64,000 nt of DNA from Bacilli bacterium (GTDB lineage Bacteria; Bacillota_I; Bacilli_A; RF39; UBA660): the NCBI GenBank assembly GCA_017548925.1, contig JAFYYX010000001.1, forward strand, positions 360,852 to 424,851, read 5' to 3'. The notes under the pieces are model-generated. The model made no database searches, was not told the DNA's origin, and worked only from the letters and a program-made list of their open reading frames with translations. The position numbers were made by a program, and so were the translations under genes. Positions within the stretch are counted from its first letter, which is position 1; each line of letters begins with the position of its first letter. Shown piece by piece: positions 45,354 to 56,700 of this stretch.

Positions 45354-46445
45354 ATGGAAAGAAATGAAGTATTAGTTGCCAAAAATACTGATGAGTTAAT
45401 CTCTTACACTAAAACACAACCGAGTGCAAATGAACTTTTTATAAGTTCGGTTACAAATCTAGATAAAATAGATTCTTTTCATAATCTCCAAAATCTTAAA
45501 ATATCCGCTTTTAAAGCTATTGAATTAAATGATGATGCAATAATTGATGGATCAAATATTAAAAAACTTAAAGCATTAAAGACACTATATATTGAAAACG
45601 ATGATCACATTGAAGAGTTATCTTTACCATGCACAATGAATCTAGATACTTTATTTATATCTTCATGTCACATACTTAAATATATTGATAACTTATTTTA
45701 TCAAAATAGATTAAGGACTTTAGTTATATATGATGTACCTAATCTTGATAAAAGTTTTTATAGTAAGTTAATAAGTTTTTTGGATAATTCAAACTTAGAT
45801 AGAGTTATTCTTGATATAAACACTTATACATTATTTACCGATAAAGAACTTGAAAAATTAAAGGAATATCATGTACTATTTGCTGAAAAAATAGGTATAA
45901 AAGATAACTATATTTTTACTCCAAAAATGATGGAAGATTTTCATAGTAAAGTTCTTGAAATTTATAAAAAGGTTCATGATGAATATAAAGATTTATATAA
46001 AATCTTATATGAATATTATGATTATGTAAGAAATACTCATTATGATGAAGAATCCCTTGCTAAAAGACAAAAGTTTACTCTTGAAGGTGGTAAATTTTAT
46101 AAATATGCAAATAGATATAAATCTATTAATTCTTCATATAAAGCTCTAATGAAAAATAATGCTGTTTGTGAAGGTTATGTAAACTTACTTAGATATTTAT
46201 ATAATCTTGAAAATGTTGATTTATATCCAGTATTTTGTAACTATAAAGAATCATCACATGTAGCTGGAAAAGCCTTTATTGATGGTGTTGAAGTATTCTT
46301 TGATCCAGAATTAGATCATAGATTTATGAATCACAATAACTTTATGATAAGTAAAGATGAATTTCAAAGAAATCATGATATCTTATTTTATCGCGATAAT
46401 TTTGATATAATAATAGAAGTAAAGAATAAAGTGAGAAGTAGATAG
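45354..46445 (+). CDS. leucine-rich-repeat protein fused to transglutaminase-like cysteine-protease domain
   Basis: N-terminal LRR-like units (LQNLKISAFKAIEL, LKALKTLYIEND, NLDTLFISSCHILKYIDNL, RLRTLVIYDVPNLD). C-terminal TGase-like core with Cys (NAVCEGYVNLLRYL), His (SSHVAGKAFIDGVEV) and Asp (FFDPELD). No signal peptide. Confidence 0.55.
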   Translation: MERNEVLVAKNTDELISYTKTQPSANELFISSVTNLDKIDSFHNLQNLKISAFKAIELNDDAIIDGSNIKKLKALKTLYIENDDHIEELSLPCTMNLDTLFISSCHILKYIDNLFYQNRLRTLVIYDVPNLDKSFYSKLISFLDNSNLDRVILDINTYTLFTDKELEKLKEYHVLFAEKIGIKDNYIFTPKMMEDFHSKVLEIYKKVHDEYKDLYKILYEYYDYVRNTHYDEESLAKRQKFTLEGGKFYKYANRYKSINSSYKALMKNNAVCEGYVNLLRYLYNLENVDLYPVFCNYKESSHVAGKAFIDGVEVFFDPELDHRFMNHNNFMISKDEFQRNHDILFYRDNFDIIIEVKNKVRSR

Positions 46446-46447
46446 TT

Positions 46448-48052
46448 ATGAAAAGAATATTACAAGAATACTTACAAAATAATCATGGTATTGGAGATAT
46501 TATATTAAATGATACTAGCAAGATTATATCTATACTAGATGATTTAAAAATAGATGCTTTATATAAAAGTAACTTTCATGGTTTATATCACTCTCAAAAG
46601 GTATGTTTATATGCATATATAATTGGTACATGCATGGGTTTAGATGAATCTGAAATGAAAATTATTTTAGATGCAGCTAAGTATCATGATATTGGAAGAG
46701 AAAACGATAATGAAGATACAACTCATGGTTATGCAGCTACTTTAAGAATAGATAAAGTAGTAAATTATTCTAATACAGATGATATATATTATTTAAAAGC
46801 AATTATTGATGCGCATGCAGTTCCTGATAAAGAAATGGATTTAATTTTTAGTAACTGGAATGAAAGAAAACATGATGATGATATTGCTTTAAAAAGGGAA
46901 AATGCTAAAGATCTTGATTTCGAAAAATTCAAAAAATTATGTTCAATATTAAAAGATGCTGATGCCCTTGATAGATTTAGATTTAAAAACTGTCCTGCAG
47001 AACTTGATGAAAACTATTTAAGAACTGATGCAGCTAAAAATAAAAAACTAATAGAAGCAGCTAAAATTATTAATGATCACTACAGGAAAGTTGAAGCTGA
47101 AGAGCAATATAAAAATGCTCAAGGTAAATATAATAAATTCACTTTTGATAAACAAATATGTTATCACAGTGTAGGGTTTGATTTTTTCAAAGCACTAAGT
47201 GTATTAGAACATGGAATATTATCATATTACAGTGCTGAAAAAAATAACATAAAATTATCAAGAAATTTTAATGGAAATAATTCTGACTTTTGGATATCTG
47301 TTGTTGATGCTAACCAACTATTTTCTCAACCAAAAGCCTTTGATAAATATGTAAAAAATGGAATAAGTTTCCTATGTTATGTTGATCAGCTTGTTCCAGG
47401 AGTTAGTAGATCTAAAGATAATGGTTCTTTAGAACCAAGAAATTCTGAATATTGTGATGAAAAATTTGTTTTTGATAAAATTCCACTTGAACATATACAA
47501 TTTATGTTAATTCCTAAAAAATATATGAATACAAGTATTACTGAATTGGAATATTTATACTGTAATTCAAACTATGAAACAATAAAAAATAATGTTAATA
47601 GATATTTAGGTGAGATAGAGCAGTACTGTGATATTAAACTAAATAGAAATAATATTAATAGAGTTTTAAATGAATTATTCCAAGTTCAAACAAATTATAA
47701 TAGTGCTTATTATCATTCTGAATTTGATGAAAAGATGTATTATCTTAAGATTGATCATATGAAAGCTGCACTTAATTTATATATTCAAGAATCAATGCAA
47801 ATTGGTTTTTGTGAACTAATGGAAAAAACAATTGATGAAAAAATCACATTAAAAGAAGTAGTTGAATTTATTCTAAAAAGAAATGGTATTGAATATACTG
47901 AAGTTCAAAGTAATAGTGATAGTGAGAGTTTTTCATCAGCAGATGATATTTTATCATTTGATGATAAAGGTGCATATATGTTAAGACTATCAACCTTTGA
48001 TTTAAATAAAACTATAAGTCTTTCAGATTTAAATCAAACAAGAGGTATTTAA
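46448..48052 (+). CDS. HD-domain phosphohydrolase-like protein with ~350-aa C-terminal domain of unknown function
   Basis: N-terminal H..HD signature (GLYHSQKVCLYAYIIG...AAKYHDIGREND...DADALDRF). Begins 3 nt after the upstream stop. Cytoplasmic. Confidence 0.55.
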   Translation: MKRILQEYLQNNHGIGDIILNDTSKIISILDDLKIDALYKSNFHGLYHSQKVCLYAYIIGTCMGLDESEMKIILDAAKYHDIGRENDNEDTTHGYAATLRIDKVVNYSNTDDIYYLKAIIDAHAVPDKEMDLIFSNWNERKHDDDIALKRENAKDLDFEKFKKLCSILKDADALDRFRFKNCPAELDENYLRTDAAKNKKLIEAAKIINDHYRKVEAEEQYKNAQGKYNKFTFDKQICYHSVGFDFFKALSVLEHGILSYYSAEKNNIKLSRNFNGNNSDFWISVVDANQLFSQPKAFDKYVKNGISFLCYVDQLVPGVSRSKDNGSLEPRNSEYCDEKFVFDKIPLEHIQFMLIPKKYMNTSITELEYLYCNSNYETIKNNVNRYLGEIEQYCDIKLNRNNINRVLNELFQVQTNYNSAYYHSEFDEKMYYLKIDHMKAALNLYIQESMQIGFCELMEKTIDEKITLKEVVEFILKRNGIEYTEVQSNSDSESFSSADDILSFDDKGAYMLRLSTFDLNKTISLSDLNQTRGI

Positions 48053-51564: not shown

Positions 51565-52536
51565 ATGCCAAATTATATAATTGAAAAATTCAAGGAACAT
51601 TGTCATGATATTGTTGAAGGTAAATATGAAAAAATAGAATATGGTCAACAAATACTTACAAACATAGTATTTAAAAATGTAGATAAGAATTTTGCTAATG
51701 ATTTTTCAAATGCAGAATTAGAATTTGTTAATTCAGACTGTGTTTGTGATTATGTTAAAGAACTTATGACTAAATGTTTAAAAGCTGATGAAGATTTTAA
51801 CGAAGAAGAATCAGAAGCTATAAAATTACTTCAAAGTGAAAAAACATTTAATAAAATGACAGCAGATGAAATTGAAAAACTAGTTGAAGAACTTGGTAAT
51901 TCAAGAGGTTTTTATTATATACCTGGACTTTATCAAAGATACTTTTTCACAATAAAAGGAAAAGGTGTTAATGAATATTTATTAACAAAAGTAGATAAAT
52001 ATGATATAGCAAGAGAATTTTTACAAACTTCTGGTTTATCAACACGTGCTGAATATTATGCAGGCCTTGGAGTTAGATACTGGGATTTAGAACCAAATCA
52101 TTTAAAAAGTATATATTATAAATTCTTAAGATTAAATCCAGAAGCTGCTGTAGAGTTTTATAAAATGGTTATATTAATGAAAACTCTAGGTGCAACAGAA
52201 TTTATTGATACTCTATACAGATTTGCAAGAAATGATTTTAAAACAGAAGGTTTATTTATAGCTGATAATAATGTAGTATCTGATAGTGCTACACATACTG
52301 GTATGGCAATTGGATTTTTTGCAGCACTTGGAAATAATCAATCAATAGATGATCAAGTACGTTTATCTAATAATATGAAATATTCGTTCTTCAGTGATAT
52401 TTCTGATTCGTTAAGCAAAATTGCTCCTGAATTATTTGAAAAACATTTAAAGGAATTTAGAAAAAGAGAAATGAATAATTATTATAATTATGATTTAATT
52501 ATAGATAATAGTAAATCTAACAGAAAACCAAGATAA
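51565..52536 (+). CDS. hypothetical cytoplasmic protein (323 aa)
   Basis: GGGAGAGG RBS. No TM and no motif recognised. Confidence 0.5.
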   Translation: MPNYIIEKFKEHCHDIVEGKYEKIEYGQQILTNIVFKNVDKNFANDFSNAELEFVNSDCVCDYVKELMTKCLKADEDFNEEESEAIKLLQSEKTFNKMTADEIEKLVEELGNSRGFYYIPGLYQRYFFTIKGKGVNEYLLTKVDKYDIAREFLQTSGLSTRAEYYAGLGVRYWDLEPNHLKSIYYKFLRLNPEAAVEFYKMVILMKTLGATEFIDTLYRFARNDFKTEGLFIADNNVVSDSATHTGMAIGFFAALGNNQSIDDQVRLSNNMKYSFFSDISDSLSKIAPELFEKHLKEFRKREMNNYYNYDLIIDNSKSNRKPR

Positions 52537-52555
52537 TAATATCTTGGTTTTTTTG
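52524..52555 (+). terminator. rho-independent terminator
   Basis: Stem aaaccaagat pairs with atcttggttt, followed by T7. Confidence 0.7.
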
Positions 52556-52730
52556 TGCACTAAATATAGTATTATCTATTGTATTTAAGCATATTATTTG
52601 ATAAAATACTATTGGCCTTAAAAAAAGGAAAAAATACACATTAATGGGGATTATTTATATCGAGTGCCAGAATTGGTGTTATAGATGAGGAGATCCATTA
52701 AGCGGAAAAAAACGAAGGAGGATGAAATTT

Positions 52731-53711
52731 ATGGCTGTAGTTTCTATGAGTTATTTATTAGAAGCTGGGGTTCATTTCGGTCATCAAACTAAAAGATGGA
52801 ACCCTAAAATGAAGGAGTATATTTATACTTCTAGAGATGATATTTATATTATCGATTTACAAAAGACACAAGCTTTAATCGAAGAAGCTTATGCAGAAAT
52901 CAAAAGTATCGCAGATAACGGAGGAAGTTTCCTATTTGTTGGTACTAAAAAACAAGCTAGCGAAGTAGCTAAGGAAGAAGCAATAAGATCTGAGTCTTAT
53001 TACGTAACTGAAAGATGGTTAGGTGGTACACTTACAAACTTCAGAACTATCAGAAGTCGTGTTAAGAGAATGGAACAAATTGAAAAAATGGAAGAAGACG
53101 GAAAATTTGACTTACTTCCTAAGAAAGAAGTTATTGGTCTTAAAAAAGAACATGACAAACTAGAAAAAATCTTAGGTGGTATTCGTGAAATGGTTAAACT
53201 TCCTCAAGCAATTATTATTGTTGATCCTAAGAAGGAAGCTAACGCTATCCATGAAGCAAGAAAATTAAATATACCTGTATTTGGTATTGTTGATACAAAC
53301 TGTGATCCAGATGACGTTGACTATGTAATTCCTGGTAATGACGATGCTGTTAGATCAGTAAAAGTTATTCTAGGAGTACTTGCAAATGCTATTTGTGAAT
53401 CTAAAGGTTTAGAAATTGTTGATTATGTAACTGAAGATGAAACTAAAGTTAAAGCTGCTAAAGCAGAAAAAACTGAAGAAGTAAAAGAAGAAAAAGTTGA
53501 AAAGAAAGCTCCTGCTAAAAAAGAAGAAAAAGTAGAAGAAAAAGAAGAAGTTAAAGAAGAAAAACCTGCTAAAAAAGCAGCTGTTAAAAAGGAAGAAAAA
53601 GAAGATTTATCTTCTAAAACTTTAACTGAACTTAAAGCTATCGCTAAAGAAAAAGGCGTTAAAGGTTACTCAACAATGAAAAAAGACGAACTTGTAAAAG
53701 TTCTTGGATAA
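52731..53711 (+). CDS. rpsB: 30S ribosomal protein S2 with C-terminal KE-rich/Rho-N-like extension
   Basis: [27 protein letters not shown]... is canonical S2 through about residue 245. It is then followed by [19 protein letters not shown]... and a terminal [37 protein letters not shown] 52731 sits 9 nt after GAAGGAGG. Confidence 0.9.
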
Positions 53712-53734
53712 TAAAGAGAAGGGATTAATTAATT

Positions 53735-54619
53735 ATGGAAATAACTGCTAGTATGGTTAAAGAATTACGTGAAGCAACAGGCGCTGGAATGATGGATTGT
53801 AAAAAAGCCCTAAGCGAATGTAATGGAAATATGGATGAAGCTGCAAACTGGCTTCGTGAAAAAGGTATTGCTAAATCAGCAAAAAAAGAATCAAGAATTG
53901 CTGCTGAAGGACTTGCAAATATCTATATTGAAGGAAATAAAGCTGTTATTTTAGAAGTTAACTCTGAAACAGACTTCGTTTCTAAAAATGAAGAATTTAA
54001 AGCAATGATCGATGAAATTGGTAATGCTATATTAAAAGGTTCTGCTAAAACAATGGATGAAGCATTAGCTTTACCATCTGCTGAAGGAACTGTTCAAGAT
54101 TTAATCGTTGCAAAAGTTGCAAAGATTGGTGAGAAGTTATCATTTAGAAGATTTGAAGTAGTTGAAAAAACTGATGCAGATAACTTTGGAGCATACTTAC
54201 ATATGGGTGGAAAAATTGCAGTTTTAGTTGTTGTTGAAGGAGCTACTGAAGAAGTAGCTAAAGATGTTGCAATGCAAGCTGCTGCTATGAAACCTAAATA
54301 TGTATTTGTAGAAGATGTACCAGCTGACGTTTTAGAAGAAGAAAAGAAAGTATTAAAAGAACAAGCTATGAATGAAGGTAAACCTGCAGAAATAGCTGAA
54401 AAAATGGTTGCTGGTAGAATTAATAAATTCTATAAAGAAATTTGTTTAACTAAACAAGCATTCATCAAAGATGGTGACATCGATGTTGAAACTTATGTTA
54501 AAAACAATAAAGGTTCTATTAAATCTATGGTACGTTACGAAGTAGGCGAAGGAATGCAAAAAAGAGAAGACAACTTTGCTGAAGAAGTAATGAACCAAGT
54601 TAACGGAACTAATGAATAA
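53735..54619 (+). CDS. tsf: elongation factor Ts
   Basis: UBA-like N-terminus ITASMVKELREATGAGMMDCKKAL with a dimerisation core. Confidence 0.9.
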   Translation: MEITASMVKELREATGAGMMDCKKALSECNGNMDEAANWLREKGIAKSAKKESRIAAEGLANIYIEGNKAVILEVNSETDFVSKNEEFKAMIDEIGNAILKGSAKTMDEALALPSAEGTVQDLIVAKVAKIGEKLSFRRFEVVEKTDADNFGAYLHMGGKIAVLVVVEGATEEVAKDVAMQAAAMKPKYVFVEDVPADVLEEEKKVLKEQAMNEGKPAEIAEKMVAGRINKFYKEICLTKQAFIKDGDIDVETYVKNNKGSIKSMVRYEVGEGMQKREDNFAEEVMNQVNGTNE

Positions 54620-54625
54620 ATAAAT

Positions 54626-54656
54626 TAAGCACTTTACAATAAAAGTGCTTTTTTAT
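54626..54656 (+). terminator. rho-independent terminator after tsf
   Basis: Stem aagcacttt pairs with aaagtgctt, followed by T6. Confidence 0.7.
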
Positions 54657-54706
54657 TTGTTATTAATAGTACTTATAATCTATAATTAAACTAGGGTGAG
54701 ATGCTA

Positions 54707-55708
54707 ATGAAACTATTTACATCATATACATTTTTACTTAAAAATATGGTTGATGATTTAAATAAAAAGTTTGATGATGCAAGCGAAATATTTGATCAAT
54801 TTAATGATGGAGGTTTTGTAAGCGTATTATTTATATTATTAGTATTATTTATTGTTCAGATTATAATAGTTACAATATTTAATTATAGTAAAAGAAGAGA
54901 AATCTCATTAGAAAAAAAATTAAGAACTAAAAATACTTCAAGTGAAATTCCTTGTAAGGGTGATTTATATATTACATATTTTATTGCATCTAAATGTAAC
55001 CTTGCTGATTATCTTTCACTTAAAGGAAATTTAATTTCATCATTTTATTTAAAATGGCTTAAAAAAGGCTTATTAAAAATAGATAAATCTGATGCTAAAG
55101 ACAAACAAGCAATTCTTTATTTTGATGACAAAGCTGCAAATTGTATTGATGATGAAGTAGAAGCTGAATTATATACCATTACAAAAAATGTTTTAGATGC
55201 AAGTGGAGCAAATTATTTTAAAGCTGATGATTTAGTAAGTTATATGACTAATAATAATGAAGATGTAATTAACTTTTTTGAACATGCATATTATAAAGGT
55301 AAAAAAAGAGTTTATGCTGCTATAACACCAGTATCAGAAAAAGTTACAAGAGTTGATAATCGCATCTTAACTGAATACATGTTAGAACTAAAAAAACAAA
55401 TTGTTGAATTTATTAACTTTATTAATAAAGTAGATATCTTAGATAACTATGAATTCGAATCAGTAAAAGTATGGGATAATTACTACATATTTGCTAATTT
55501 ACTTGGACTTAGAGATAAGATTAAAGATGGTAGATTTAAAGATAAAGTTAATCCAAATTTAATCAAGTTAAAATATACAAGAACATTTGAAAATATTGAT
55601 AACATTGTTCATGTTAATGTTTTATGTAGTGAAAAAGAATATAAAAATAATAAAAGAAAAATTATTAAATCAAAACGTAATTATGAAAAAGAAACTAATA
55701 ATAATTAA
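54707..55708 (+). CDS. membrane-anchored protein of unknown function (island paralogue A)
   Basis: N-terminal TM (FVSVLFILLVLFIVQIIIVTIF). Shares conserved blocks with the next gene (PCKGDLYITYFIASKCNLADYLSLKGNLISSFYLKWLKKGLLK and LELKKQIVEF). GGGTGAG SD. Confidence 0.5.
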   Translation: MKLFTSYTFLLKNMVDDLNKKFDDASEIFDQFNDGGFVSVLFILLVLFIVQIIIVTIFNYSKRREISLEKKLRTKNTSSEIPCKGDLYITYFIASKCNLADYLSLKGNLISSFYLKWLKKGLLKIDKSDAKDKQAILYFDDKAANCIDDEVEAELYTITKNVLDASGANYFKADDLVSYMTNNNEDVINFFEHAYYKGKKRVYAAITPVSEKVTRVDNRILTEYMLELKKQIVEFINFINKVDILDNYEFESVKVWDNYYIFANLLGLRDKIKDGRFKDKVNPNLIKLKYTRTFENIDNIVHVNVLCSEKEYKNNKRKIIKSKRNYEKETNNN

Positions 55709-55725
55709 AAATGGTGGTGTATAAG

Positions 55726-56700
55726 ATGTACATTTTGGGTAAATTAAATGAACTTGATAAAGTATCAGAATTTATGAATTTTATAAAAGATCATAAAGGA
55801 TTAATTATATTTATATTTATGGCAGTACTTATTCTAGTAATTGTTTATTATATATTTATAATGTTTACTGATAAAACTAAAGAAAATACTAATATAGTAG
55901 ATGAAAATACTGAAACAAAAGAGTATTTGAAAGATGTACCATGTAAGGGAGATTTGTTTATTACATATTTTGTTTTATCTAAAAGTAATTTAATAGATTA
56001 TTTAACAGTTAAAGGTAATTTTATTTCTTCTATATATTTATCATGGATAAAAAAAGGACTTATCAAAACCAAGTCTATAGATAAGGGAGATAATCAATTA
56101 AATCTTTATTTTGATAACACAAATATAACTGCTATAGATAGTGAGATAGAGAAAAAATTATATGAATCAATAAAAAATGGTATTACAGTAAATCAAACAG
56201 GTGTATTTAAACTAGATGAATTAGTTAAATCATTAGTTAGTAGTAATCAAATAATCGTTAACTTCTTAAAAGAATCTTATGAAGAAGGTAAGAAAAGAAT
56301 TATCAAAACGCTTACTAATTCTTATGAATTAAATGAAGATTATAATGTTGAACCTTGCGTCCAAGAACTAAAAAAACAAATAGTATCATTTCAAAATTAT
56401 TTAATTAATTTTGCAAATGGTCCAGAAAATGAATCTGCATCAGTTTATGTACTTGATAATTATTATGAGTTTTCAAAATTTTTAGATATTCATGAAAATA
56501 TTAAAAATACATGGATTAGTAATAAGGTAAATGCTGACATGGTTAAAGTTGCTTGCACTGATTTATTTAGTAATATTAATGAATATGCACACACAAATAA
56601 TTTGTATTCTGATACCGAACTTAAAAAACATAAAAAAGCCATAAAAAAATCAGAAAAAGCATTTAATAATGTTCAAAAGAAAGAATTTTTTCATGCTTAA
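55726..56700 (+). CDS. membrane-anchored protein of unknown function (island paralogue B)
   Basis: N-terminal TM (GLIIFIFMAVLILVIVYYIFIMF). Blocks PCKGDLFITYFVLSKSNLIDYLTVKGNFISSIYLSWIKKGLIK and QELKKQIVSF. GGTGGTG SD 6 nt upstream. Confidence 0.5.
   Translation: MYILGKLNELDKVSEFMNFIKDHKGLIIFIFMAVLILVIVYYIFIMFTDKTKENTNIVDENTETKEYLKDVPCKGDLFITYFVLSKSNLIDYLTVKGNFISSIYLSWIKKGLIKTKSIDKGDNQLNLYFDNTNITAIDSEIEKKLYESIKNGITVNQTGVFKLDELVKSLVSSNQIIVNFLKESYEEGKKRIIKTLTNSYELNEDYNVEPCVQELKKQIVSFQNYLINFANGPENESASVYVLDNYYEFSKFLDIHENIKNTWISNKVNADMVKVACTDLFSNINEYAHTNNLYSDTELKKHKKAIKKSEKAFNNVQKKEFFHA

Follow-up and report, generated by a model that had tools for sequence, protein, structure and literature searches.

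A tethered Rho_N-family module at the C-terminus of ribosomal protein uS2 in gut Bacilli, and its recurrence on bL20 and bL21

The rpsB gene considered here lies in a 64,000-nucleotide stretch of DNA from a Bacilli bacterium (contig JAFYYX010000001.1, positions 360,852 to 424,851, assembly GCA_017548925.1), which is analysed as a whole and referred to as the window. Its product is a ribosomal protein uS2 in which the canonical core is followed by a Lys/Glu-rich linker and a small terminal module of the Rho_N type. We are nearly certain of this identity and architecture, i.e., uS2 followed by a tether and a Rho_N-family module. Judging from the proteins recovered below, the cassette of tether and module is a recurrent decoration of the ribosome surface, present on uS2, bL20 and bL21, and not a peculiarity of S2. 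The best explanation as a whole is that of a genuine tethered Rho_N cassette acting as an RNA-binding arm, an explanation we hold almost as readily as we doubt it.

The product of rpsB has 326 residues and is identical to NCBI entry MBR5662457.1, “30S ribosomal protein S2 [Bacilli bacterium]”. Residues 9-223 match Pfam Ribosomal_S2 (PF00318) with 327 bits against a cutoff of 26.1, covering model positions 1-215 of 216, and residues 3-225 match TIGR01011 with 340.3 bits against a cutoff of 76.3, which places the protein in the uS2 family. A preliminary description of this sequence had taken S2 to be canonical up to about residue 245; the canonical core is indeed present, yet the sequence conserved among homologs extends only to about residue 233. 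Counted from there, the extension comprises about 93 residues, of which 58 form the linker and 35 the module. A typical Firmicute S2 has about 245 residues, and relative to that length the extension amounts to about 80 residues, as originally estimated. The start that had been proposed for the region, position 53440, corresponds to codon 237, at the start of the linker, and both the Lys/Glu-rich linker and the final 34 residues read exactly as they had been quoted.

The uS2 protein lines the mRNA exit channel and anchors bS1, and its docking and Zn-pocket residues have been defined (PMC10123108). S2 had been placed at the mRNA entry/exit side of the small subunit, and of this only the exit side is correct. 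The bS1-docking and Zn-pocket residues are retained in the window protein (H18, Y32, D188, N203, D204 and D205), and in the family alignment H18, an aromatic residue at position 32, D188, N203, D204 and D205 are invariant. Given these residues are intact, the idea that the tail replaces bS1 docking was rejected.

The terminal module was identified by a hidden Markov model (HMM) search. In the whole protein, PF07498 (Rho_N) matches residues 292-322 with 40.3 bits and an E-value of 3e-10, and the last 39 residues alone score 45.0 bits with an E-value of 1e-11, against a gathering cutoff of 24.9; the match covers model positions 1-31 of 43 only. With SAP (PF02037) the window tail yields 14.5-18 bits, below the cutoff of 23.9, and with HeH/LEM (PF12949; HeH, helix-extended-helix) it yields 11.3-14.3 bits, below the cutoff of 28.9. 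The initial label of a Rho_N/SAP-like tail is therefore retained in its first half, while SAP and HeH stay under their thresholds. Rho_N, SAP, HeH and LEM belong to one Pfam clan. Models of complete Rho proteins are matched over their first ~35 positions only, with 19.6 bits against 509 for TIGR00767 and 20.1 bits against 315 for PRK09376; on these scores, the rpsB product is not a Rho factor.

The module follows the motif L..ELK..AK..G..GYS.MKK.ELI, has a net charge of +3, and contains five Lys positions that are invariant or nearly so. When its profile was compared with all Protein Data Bank (PDB) sequences, significant matches were obtained only with Rho N-termini (8hsj, 4e-6; 7oqh, 8e-6; also 3l0o), and no solved ribosome in that search carries the tail. 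A weak match to the SAP domain of Ku70 was also seen. The AlphaFold2 (AF2) model of an isolated 41-residue construct has a predicted local distance difference test score (pLDDT) of 85.6, exceeding 90 within the module, and places helices at positions 13-23 and 33-40. When the whole protein is modelled, the S2 core is folded and the module has a pLDDT of 71-82. A Foldseek search of the PDB returns first the N-terminal domain of E. coli Rho (root-mean-square deviation of ~1 Å over 33-36 residues, TMq of 0.76-0.79), with SAP domains (Tho1, FAN1 and DEK) ranking next. This predicted fold is supportive, short of independent proof.

The linker has 19 Lys, 19 Glu and 8 Ala among its 58 residues, with a net charge of -1. 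Its residues, 234-291, have a pLDDT of ~30 in the full-length model and are predicted to be disordered. In the alignment of 118 homologs they occupy 123 columns, and among homologs the linker varies from 42 to 79 residues, with a median of 59.5 residues and a median net charge of -1.5. The underlying DNA is purine-rich, with AAG microrepeats and A6 runs in addition to the tandem repeat listed in Table 1. These repeats and runs lead to insertions, deletions and length variation in the linker, as well as to frameshift and misassembly artefacts in metagenome-assembled genomes (MAGs). The linker is a disordered, near-neutral Lys/Glu polyampholyte tether, which evolves fast and changes its length by repeat slippage, and the C-terminus on which it sits is exposed to solvent. 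Programmed frameshifting, which could produce tail-less isoforms in the manner of dnaX, was also considered, and no in-frame X XXY YYZ heptamer is present in the A-rich linker.

All of the 120 best homologs, which have 71-100% identity and come from independent assemblies, carry both PF00318 and PF07498, and their tails align; the comparison with S2 from related taxa that had been suggested thus finds the extension shared throughout. Among the 118 full-length homologs, the core has a mean pairwise identity of 90% and the module one of 86%, against 45% in the linker. In S2 genes, the identity of the module at codon positions 1, 2 and 3 is 0.76, 0.86 and 0.61, respectively, and in L20 genes it is 0.64 at position 3 against 0.89 at position 2. 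Third positions are far more diverged than second positions, which indicates purifying selection on the module. As far as these alignments tell, the module is conserved about as strongly as the ribosomal core.

These values also bear on the possibility of an artefact, in which a frameshift, a read-through or a misassembled fusion to a neighbouring small open reading frame (ORF) makes the extension. Although the repeat- and A-rich linker DNA does yield frameshifts and chimeric contigs in other assemblies, the artefacts seen there split the gene and never create the fusion. Moreover, the frame in the window is continuous and ends in a tandem stop, the identical 326-residue protein is present on 6-7 independent contigs (the largest of 1.04 Mb), among them the ENA scaffold of the window itself (ERZ28654058 scaffold_1), and the 118 homologs present the same architecture in independent assemblies. 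An artefact is effectively refuted. The original judgement that no frameshift lies behind the extension, made from the continuous ORF, is now backed by homolog conservation, alignment and codon pattern.

Regarding function, the module may be an autonomous, Lys-rich, nucleic-acid-binding knob on a flexible leash. The reach of a 58-residue coil is estimated at ~6 nm r.m.s. and up to ~20 nm when extended, which would be enough to sweep the platform and the exit region. On uS2, the knob would be anchored close to the mRNA exit channel and to the site where bS1 docks, and would bind RNA there with low sequence specificity; its target could be the 5' region of the mRNA or the nascent transcript, or else rRNA that is exposed. 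Such binding would raise the subunit's local affinity for RNA, with the tail acting as a minimal bS1-like capture arm, and the copies on bL20 and bL21 would do likewise on the 50S surface. We put this function of the tail forward tentatively, by analogy, and doubt somewhat outweighs belief. The preliminary description had called the module nucleic-acid-binding, and published work agrees with this in part. The last 40 residues of Arabidopsis RHON1, a C-terminal helix-extended-helix Rho-N motif, are enough for RNA binding in gel-shift assays, with fragments of 16S and 23S rRNA among the RNAs bound, and RHON1 works in complex with RNase E (PMC3458557). The helix bundle of Rho bears positive charge and acts as an auxiliary to the primary RNA-binding site (PMC11347177). 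SAP domains, as relatives of the module, bind DNA or RNA, which supports the same reading.

Several points weigh against an RNA-binding arm. It is the OB fold of Rho, and not the helix bundle, that binds RNA (PMC11347177), and the “nucleic-acid-binding” label would rest on the analogies with RHON1 and SAP. SAP relatives bind double-stranded DNA (dsDNA) or proteins besides RNA. The Foldseek E-values of 0.66-2 are non-significant, for a domain of only ~36 residues. The bS1-docking residues of uS2 being intact, the tail is no obvious bS1 replacement. Finally, bL20 and bL21 also carry the module although they lie at a distance from the path of the mRNA, which speaks against a role at the mRNA exit alone. 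Given the same knob is found on these two proteins, a general surface function, such as RNA capture, rRNA contact or tethering, is favoured over an exit-specific one.

The distribution of the module was obtained by running its profile against a single genome from each GTDB species, which yielded at least 471 stretches confirmed by tblastn. Host ORFs were extracted for the best 80 of these, and 48 are bL20, 31 are uS2 and one is bL21. The uS2 hosts consist of 30 direct cases and one 86-residue ORF (L018), an S2 interrupted by masked N's. Tailed bL20 proteins have 172-196 residues, against ~118 in the canonical protein, and Pfam finds the combinations L20+Rho_N, S2+Rho_N and L21p+Rho_N all above cutoff. 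In one MAG, CANQOE01, the tail occurs on uS2 (L032) as well as on bL20 (L011). The carriers of the uS2 and bL20 cassettes are uncultured gut “Bacilli” or “Tenericutes” MAGs, “Mycoplasma sp. CAG:776”, “Clostridium sp. CAG:609” and Ca. Coprovivens, which we take to be members of reduced-genome, RF39-type orders. The extension had been suggested as a lineage marker; the tail is characteristic of this clade of gut Bacilli MAGs, yet the cassette is not specific to S2, given it is found on bL20 and bL21 too. This weakens any explanation by the position of S2 alone.

The similarity between S2 and L20 modules is 0.74, against 0.75-0.77 within each class. Overall, the two sets are indistinguishable, which would be compatible with a shared ligand. 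Concerted evolution of S2 and L20 tails within a genome was also considered and is unsupported, since the pair from the same MAG ranks only 19th of 47 and 4th of 31. The shared ligand may instead be a protein: the HeH knob would bind a common partner (RNA polymerase, NusA, NusG, an RNase or helicase, or a hibernation factor) or itself, and the tails would thereby bring a factor to the two subunits or link ribosomes to one another. Indistinguishable S2 and L20 modules are what one common partner predicts, and the LEM/HeH clan includes protein-binding members. The 3-8 tandem modules found in many proteins suit avidity or scaffolding, and RHON1 acts with RNase E (PMC3458557). However, no partner is known, no co-conserved neighbouring gene of the tailed genes was seen at the loci examined, and the most conserved surface residues are lysines, more typical of contacts with a phosphate backbone. 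Docking to a protein is thus considered unlikely.

The bL21 case among the best 80 (L079, 1964-2626) lies in a genuine rplU-rpmA operon. A homolog search for this protein (matches P0308-P0427) shows that bL21+Rho_N, often scoring SAP and HeH too, is widespread in Flavobacteriia. The carriers include cultured Tenacibaculum species with complete genomes, Crocinitomicaceae and Putridiphycobacter, and the tailed protein is annotated plainly as L21 in every case. The linkers of bL21 are A/K/P-rich and net positive. Some of the related tails pass the SAP cutoff of 23.9, namely that of L018, with 25.6 bits, and many of those on bL21.

These scores are of interest for another reading, in which a SAP-like module binds dsDNA and holds ribosomal subunits near the nucleoid and nascent transcripts in small cells. 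The DNA-bound SAP domains of FAN1, DEK and Tho1 rank directly behind Rho in the fold search, the SAP and HeH cutoffs are reached or nearly reached by related tails (L018 and the bL21 tails), the A/P/K-rich, net positive bL21 linkers are histone-H1-like, and the weak Ku70 SAP match points in the same direction. Nevertheless, the window tail itself reaches neither the SAP nor the HeH cutoff, the S2 linker carries a neutral to acidic net charge, and RHON1, the nearest relative tested experimentally, binds RNA. A nucleoid tether is therefore rated as quite unlikely.

A further alternative assigns the tail no role on the mature ribosome. It would help free uS2 and bL20 to stay soluble or to assemble, as an intramolecular chaperone or entropic bristle, or would take part in the autoregulation of their operons. 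Highly charged disordered tails commonly help solubility, S2 and L20 of E. coli both translationally autoregulate their own operons, and the NCBI “sunset domain” variants of S2 and L20 suggest that these C-termini tolerate add-ons. Yet a bristle needs no folded 35-residue module conserved at 86%, and bL21, which is not known as an autoregulator, bears the same module, which makes this alternative very unlikely. We consider it highly improbable that the tails are mimics of the Rho N-terminus, presenting the helix bundle that Rho has at its end facing RNA and RNA polymerase, so that uS2 beside the mRNA exit (and bL20 or bL21 on the 50S) would engage the nascent transcript or the elongation complex. 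Such contacts would physically couple translation to transcription, or would let the tails rival Rho or take over its role in AT-rich genomes of reduced size, which may lack Rho. If this were true, the cassette would be an unrecognised, convergently evolved coupling device in two phyla.

Beyond ribosomal proteins, the module was detected in 7,715 clusters of a representative library (E <= 1e-3). Many unrelated proteins (P0146-P0200) contain 3-8 tandem copies, and some of these look viral or eukaryotic. In addition, 90 phage genomes, mostly of temperate Staphylococcus and Streptococcus siphophages, encode the module in small ORFs (H2-H25), which are named inconsistently as “transcriptional terminator”, “Arc-like repressor” or “Rho_N domain-containing”. 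The statement that Rho_N-type modules are found appended to other proteins thus holds for bL20, bL21, multi-copy proteins and phage ORFs. Going by these searches, the module is promiscuous overall, and its real hosts in the lineage of the window are uS2 and bL20. Within the 64-kb window, a six-frame hmmsearch with the tail HMM found the S2 copy only, and none of rplT, rho and rpsA is present.

The Rho_N domain and the idea of ribosomal-protein extensions were known beforehand, and the architecture itself is already in databases, as precomputed Pfam matches and as the “unknown domain fusion” of NCBI model PRK14537. No description of S2, L20 or L21 fusions with Rho_N was found in the literature. 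Among the main sources of heterogeneity between ribosomes are lineage-specific extensions of ribosomal proteins, and a function has been assigned to few of those found in bacteria. In the present case, a single small folded module on a disordered leash has been recruited independently to uS2, bL20 and bL21, i.e., to both subunits and in two phyla. This independent recruitment, combined with selection as strong as that on the core, points to a real and general function at the ribosome surface. Candidates are RNA capture, coupling to the nucleoid or to transcription, and factor recruitment, all apparently never studied for this module. The cross-phylum recurrence on both subunits and the culturable carriers are the most interesting aspect of these results, and the bL21 of culturable Tenacibaculum makes an experimental study of the module's function practicable.

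The coordinates of the features discussed are presented in Table 1.

Table 1. Features of the rpsB-tsf region in the window and of fragmentary or chimeric relatives at other loci.
Feature	Position	Strand	Basis or remark
Shine-Dalgarno sequence AAGGAGG of rpsB	52715..52721	+	Read in the DNA; 9 nt upstream of ATG 52731
rpsB coding sequence, 326-residue uS2 with C-terminal extension	52731..53711	+	Stop TAA 53709-53711
Canonical uS2 core, residues 1-233	52731..53429	+	PF00318, homolog identity, folded in AF2
K/E-rich low-complexity linker, residues 234-291	53430..53603	+	AF2 disorder, low identity
Imperfect 69-nt (23-residue) tandem repeat, 2.1 copies	53460..53605	+	Tandem Repeats Finder
Rho_N-type module (predicted helix-extended-helix), residues 292-326	53604..53708	+	PF07498, conservation, codon pattern, AF2
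tsf (EF-Ts, PF00889)	53735..54619	+	Co-transcribed; 23 nt downstream of rpsB
Terminator-like hairpin and T-run closing the rpsB-tsf operon	54627..54650	+	Sole terminator-like site here, 3' of tsf
Cut-off bL20/uS2 tails	L082 2501-2710; L083 1083-1178; L084 1656-2596; L018 1248-2251
Chimeras of transmembrane segment, linker and module	L085 165-509; L086 408-797		P0218, P0217; joined inside the S2 linker; one with ~2x coverage

The ORF that includes rpsB spans 52722..53711 on the forward strand and offers two candidate start codons, ATG 52722 and ATG 52731. The former directly abuts the Shine-Dalgarno sequence and the latter lies at the spacing given in Table 1, for which reason the real start is taken to be ATG 52731 (MAVVSM...). 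The frame is continuous and closes with a tandem TAA TAA at 53709-53714, the second TAA being at 53712-53714. The gene had been described as ending in a clean stop and a terminator; the stop is as described, but inspection of the 23-nt gap to tsf revealed no terminator after rpsB. The rpsB and tsf genes form a single operon, and their order is also kept at homologous loci.

Upstream of rpsB there is a ~190-nt untranslated leader (52537-52730), located after the terminator-like region of the preceding gene. In other bacteria, S2 autoregulates rpsB-tsf via the leader. No Rfam family matches this leader at gathering thresholds, nor is any matched across the window. Further upstream, the window encodes FtsW, MurG, MurB and FtsQ, which indicates that the organism makes peptidoglycan. 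Three ORFs of 363, 534 and 323 residues (45354-46445, 46448-48052 and 51565-52536), in or next to the FtsW-MurG-MurB-FtsQ-QueH cluster, match no Pfam family at E <= 1e-4. The same threshold gives no Pfam match for two tandem paralogous ORFs of 335 and 329 residues (54701-55708 and 55711-56700) directly after the rpsB-tsf terminator. Both have an N-terminal hydrophobic segment and the common motif PCKGDL[YF]ITYF...KG[NL][FL]ISS.YL.W[LI]KKGL, and a similar motif appears in P0246, from the representative-library search.

Some matches among relatives were discarded as false leads. “Rho_N domain-containing” mini-proteins of 31-71 residues, which look standalone, are S2 or L20 tails that frameshifts or gaps have separated from their proteins, as their contexts indicate: P0127 lies where rplT is expected, P0142 abuts a truncated S2 upstream of tsf, P0124 is the tail of the bL20 of L009, and L018 is an S2 broken by N's. 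The mini-ORFs annotated at NCBI as “Rho termination factor N-terminal domain-containing protein” (for example, MFR5856213.1, MCX4254041.1 and MEG0977336.1) are a systematic MAG annotation artefact of this kind. Apparent membrane-anchored forms, in which a transmembrane segment precedes the K/E linker and module (P0217 and P0218), are chimeric contigs of ~1 kb with tsf directly downstream, and for this reason we abandoned the notion of a bacterial membrane tether of the HeH type. Likewise, the top-scoring long S2 matches P0001 (524 residues) and P0066 (452 residues), in which the S2 core is internally duplicated, are chimeric assemblies on contigs of 2.6-2.8 kb and not multidomain proteins. In practical terms, the repeat-rich linker yields frameshifts and chimeras in MAGs, and these result in spurious Rho_N annotations and truncated S2 and L20 calls.

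Among known systems, the module resembles most directly the N-terminal helix bundle of Rho (PF07498), with which it shares the HMM match, the best PDB matches in both sequence and predicted fold, the motif and the positive charge. Unlike in Rho, the module is C-terminal and comes without the OB-fold RNA-binding domain or the RecA ATPase, and there is no evidence of a termination role for the module on uS2. RHON1 is the best functional precedent by analogy: in this unrelated protein, too, a charged low-complexity stretch leads to a Rho-N motif of ~40 residues that forms the very C-terminus. RHON1 is, however, a eukaryotic chloroplast protein that partners RNase E, and the likeness is judged at the motif only. 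The SAP, HeH and LEM domains of proteins such as Tho1, FAN1, Ku70 and DEK have the two-helix, helix-extended-helix fold predicted for the module, bind nucleic acids and are often terminal on flexible linkers. They differ from the window tail, which scores below the SAP and HeH cutoffs, in being mostly eukaryotic and mostly binders of dsDNA or chromatin.

Two kinds of database models describe ribosomal proteins with comparable additions. The S2 tail matches PRK14537 (“50S ribosomal protein L20/unknown domain fusion protein”) at positions 175-223 of 232 with 24-25 bits; this covers only the part of the terminal domain, the host core is S2, and the cutoff is 187 bits, so that the S2 protein is no member. 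The lineage's own bL20 proteins reach 164-171 bits, just below that cutoff. The NCBIfam sunset variants of S2 (NF051451) and L20 (NF051450) likewise have a long C-terminal extension that ends in a small domain, and the core and linker parts of both models align with the proteins studied here. Nonetheless, the window protein scores 296 bits against 710 with NF051451, over model positions 1-302 of 382 only, and the bL20 proteins of L055 and L013 score 142-147 bits against 375 with NF051450, unmatched beyond ~169 of 219. Since the terminal part of both models is unmatched, identity with the sunset domain, for which no literature was found, was rejected; it is a different appendage from the Rho_N cassette.

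The closest relatives are the tailed ribosomal proteins themselves. Tailed bL20 of the same gut Bacilli lineage has the K/E linker and the module at the C-terminus, with module sequences indistinguishable from those of uS2, but differs in its large-subunit host and in its linker, which is slightly basic and has a median of 31 residues against 59.5 in uS2. Tailed bL21 of Tenacibaculum spp. and Crocinitomicaceae also combines a ribosomal protein, a low-complexity linker and a C-terminal module. It differs in phylum, in host protein, in its A/K/P-rich positive linker, in a module that passes or approaches SAP and HeH, and in being found in culturable organisms. As a working analogy, bS1 and bL7/L12 also present RNA- or factor-binding domains on flexible linkers at the ribosome surface. 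They have no sequence or fold relation to the cassette; bS1 uses OB folds, and the tail is covalently part of uS2.

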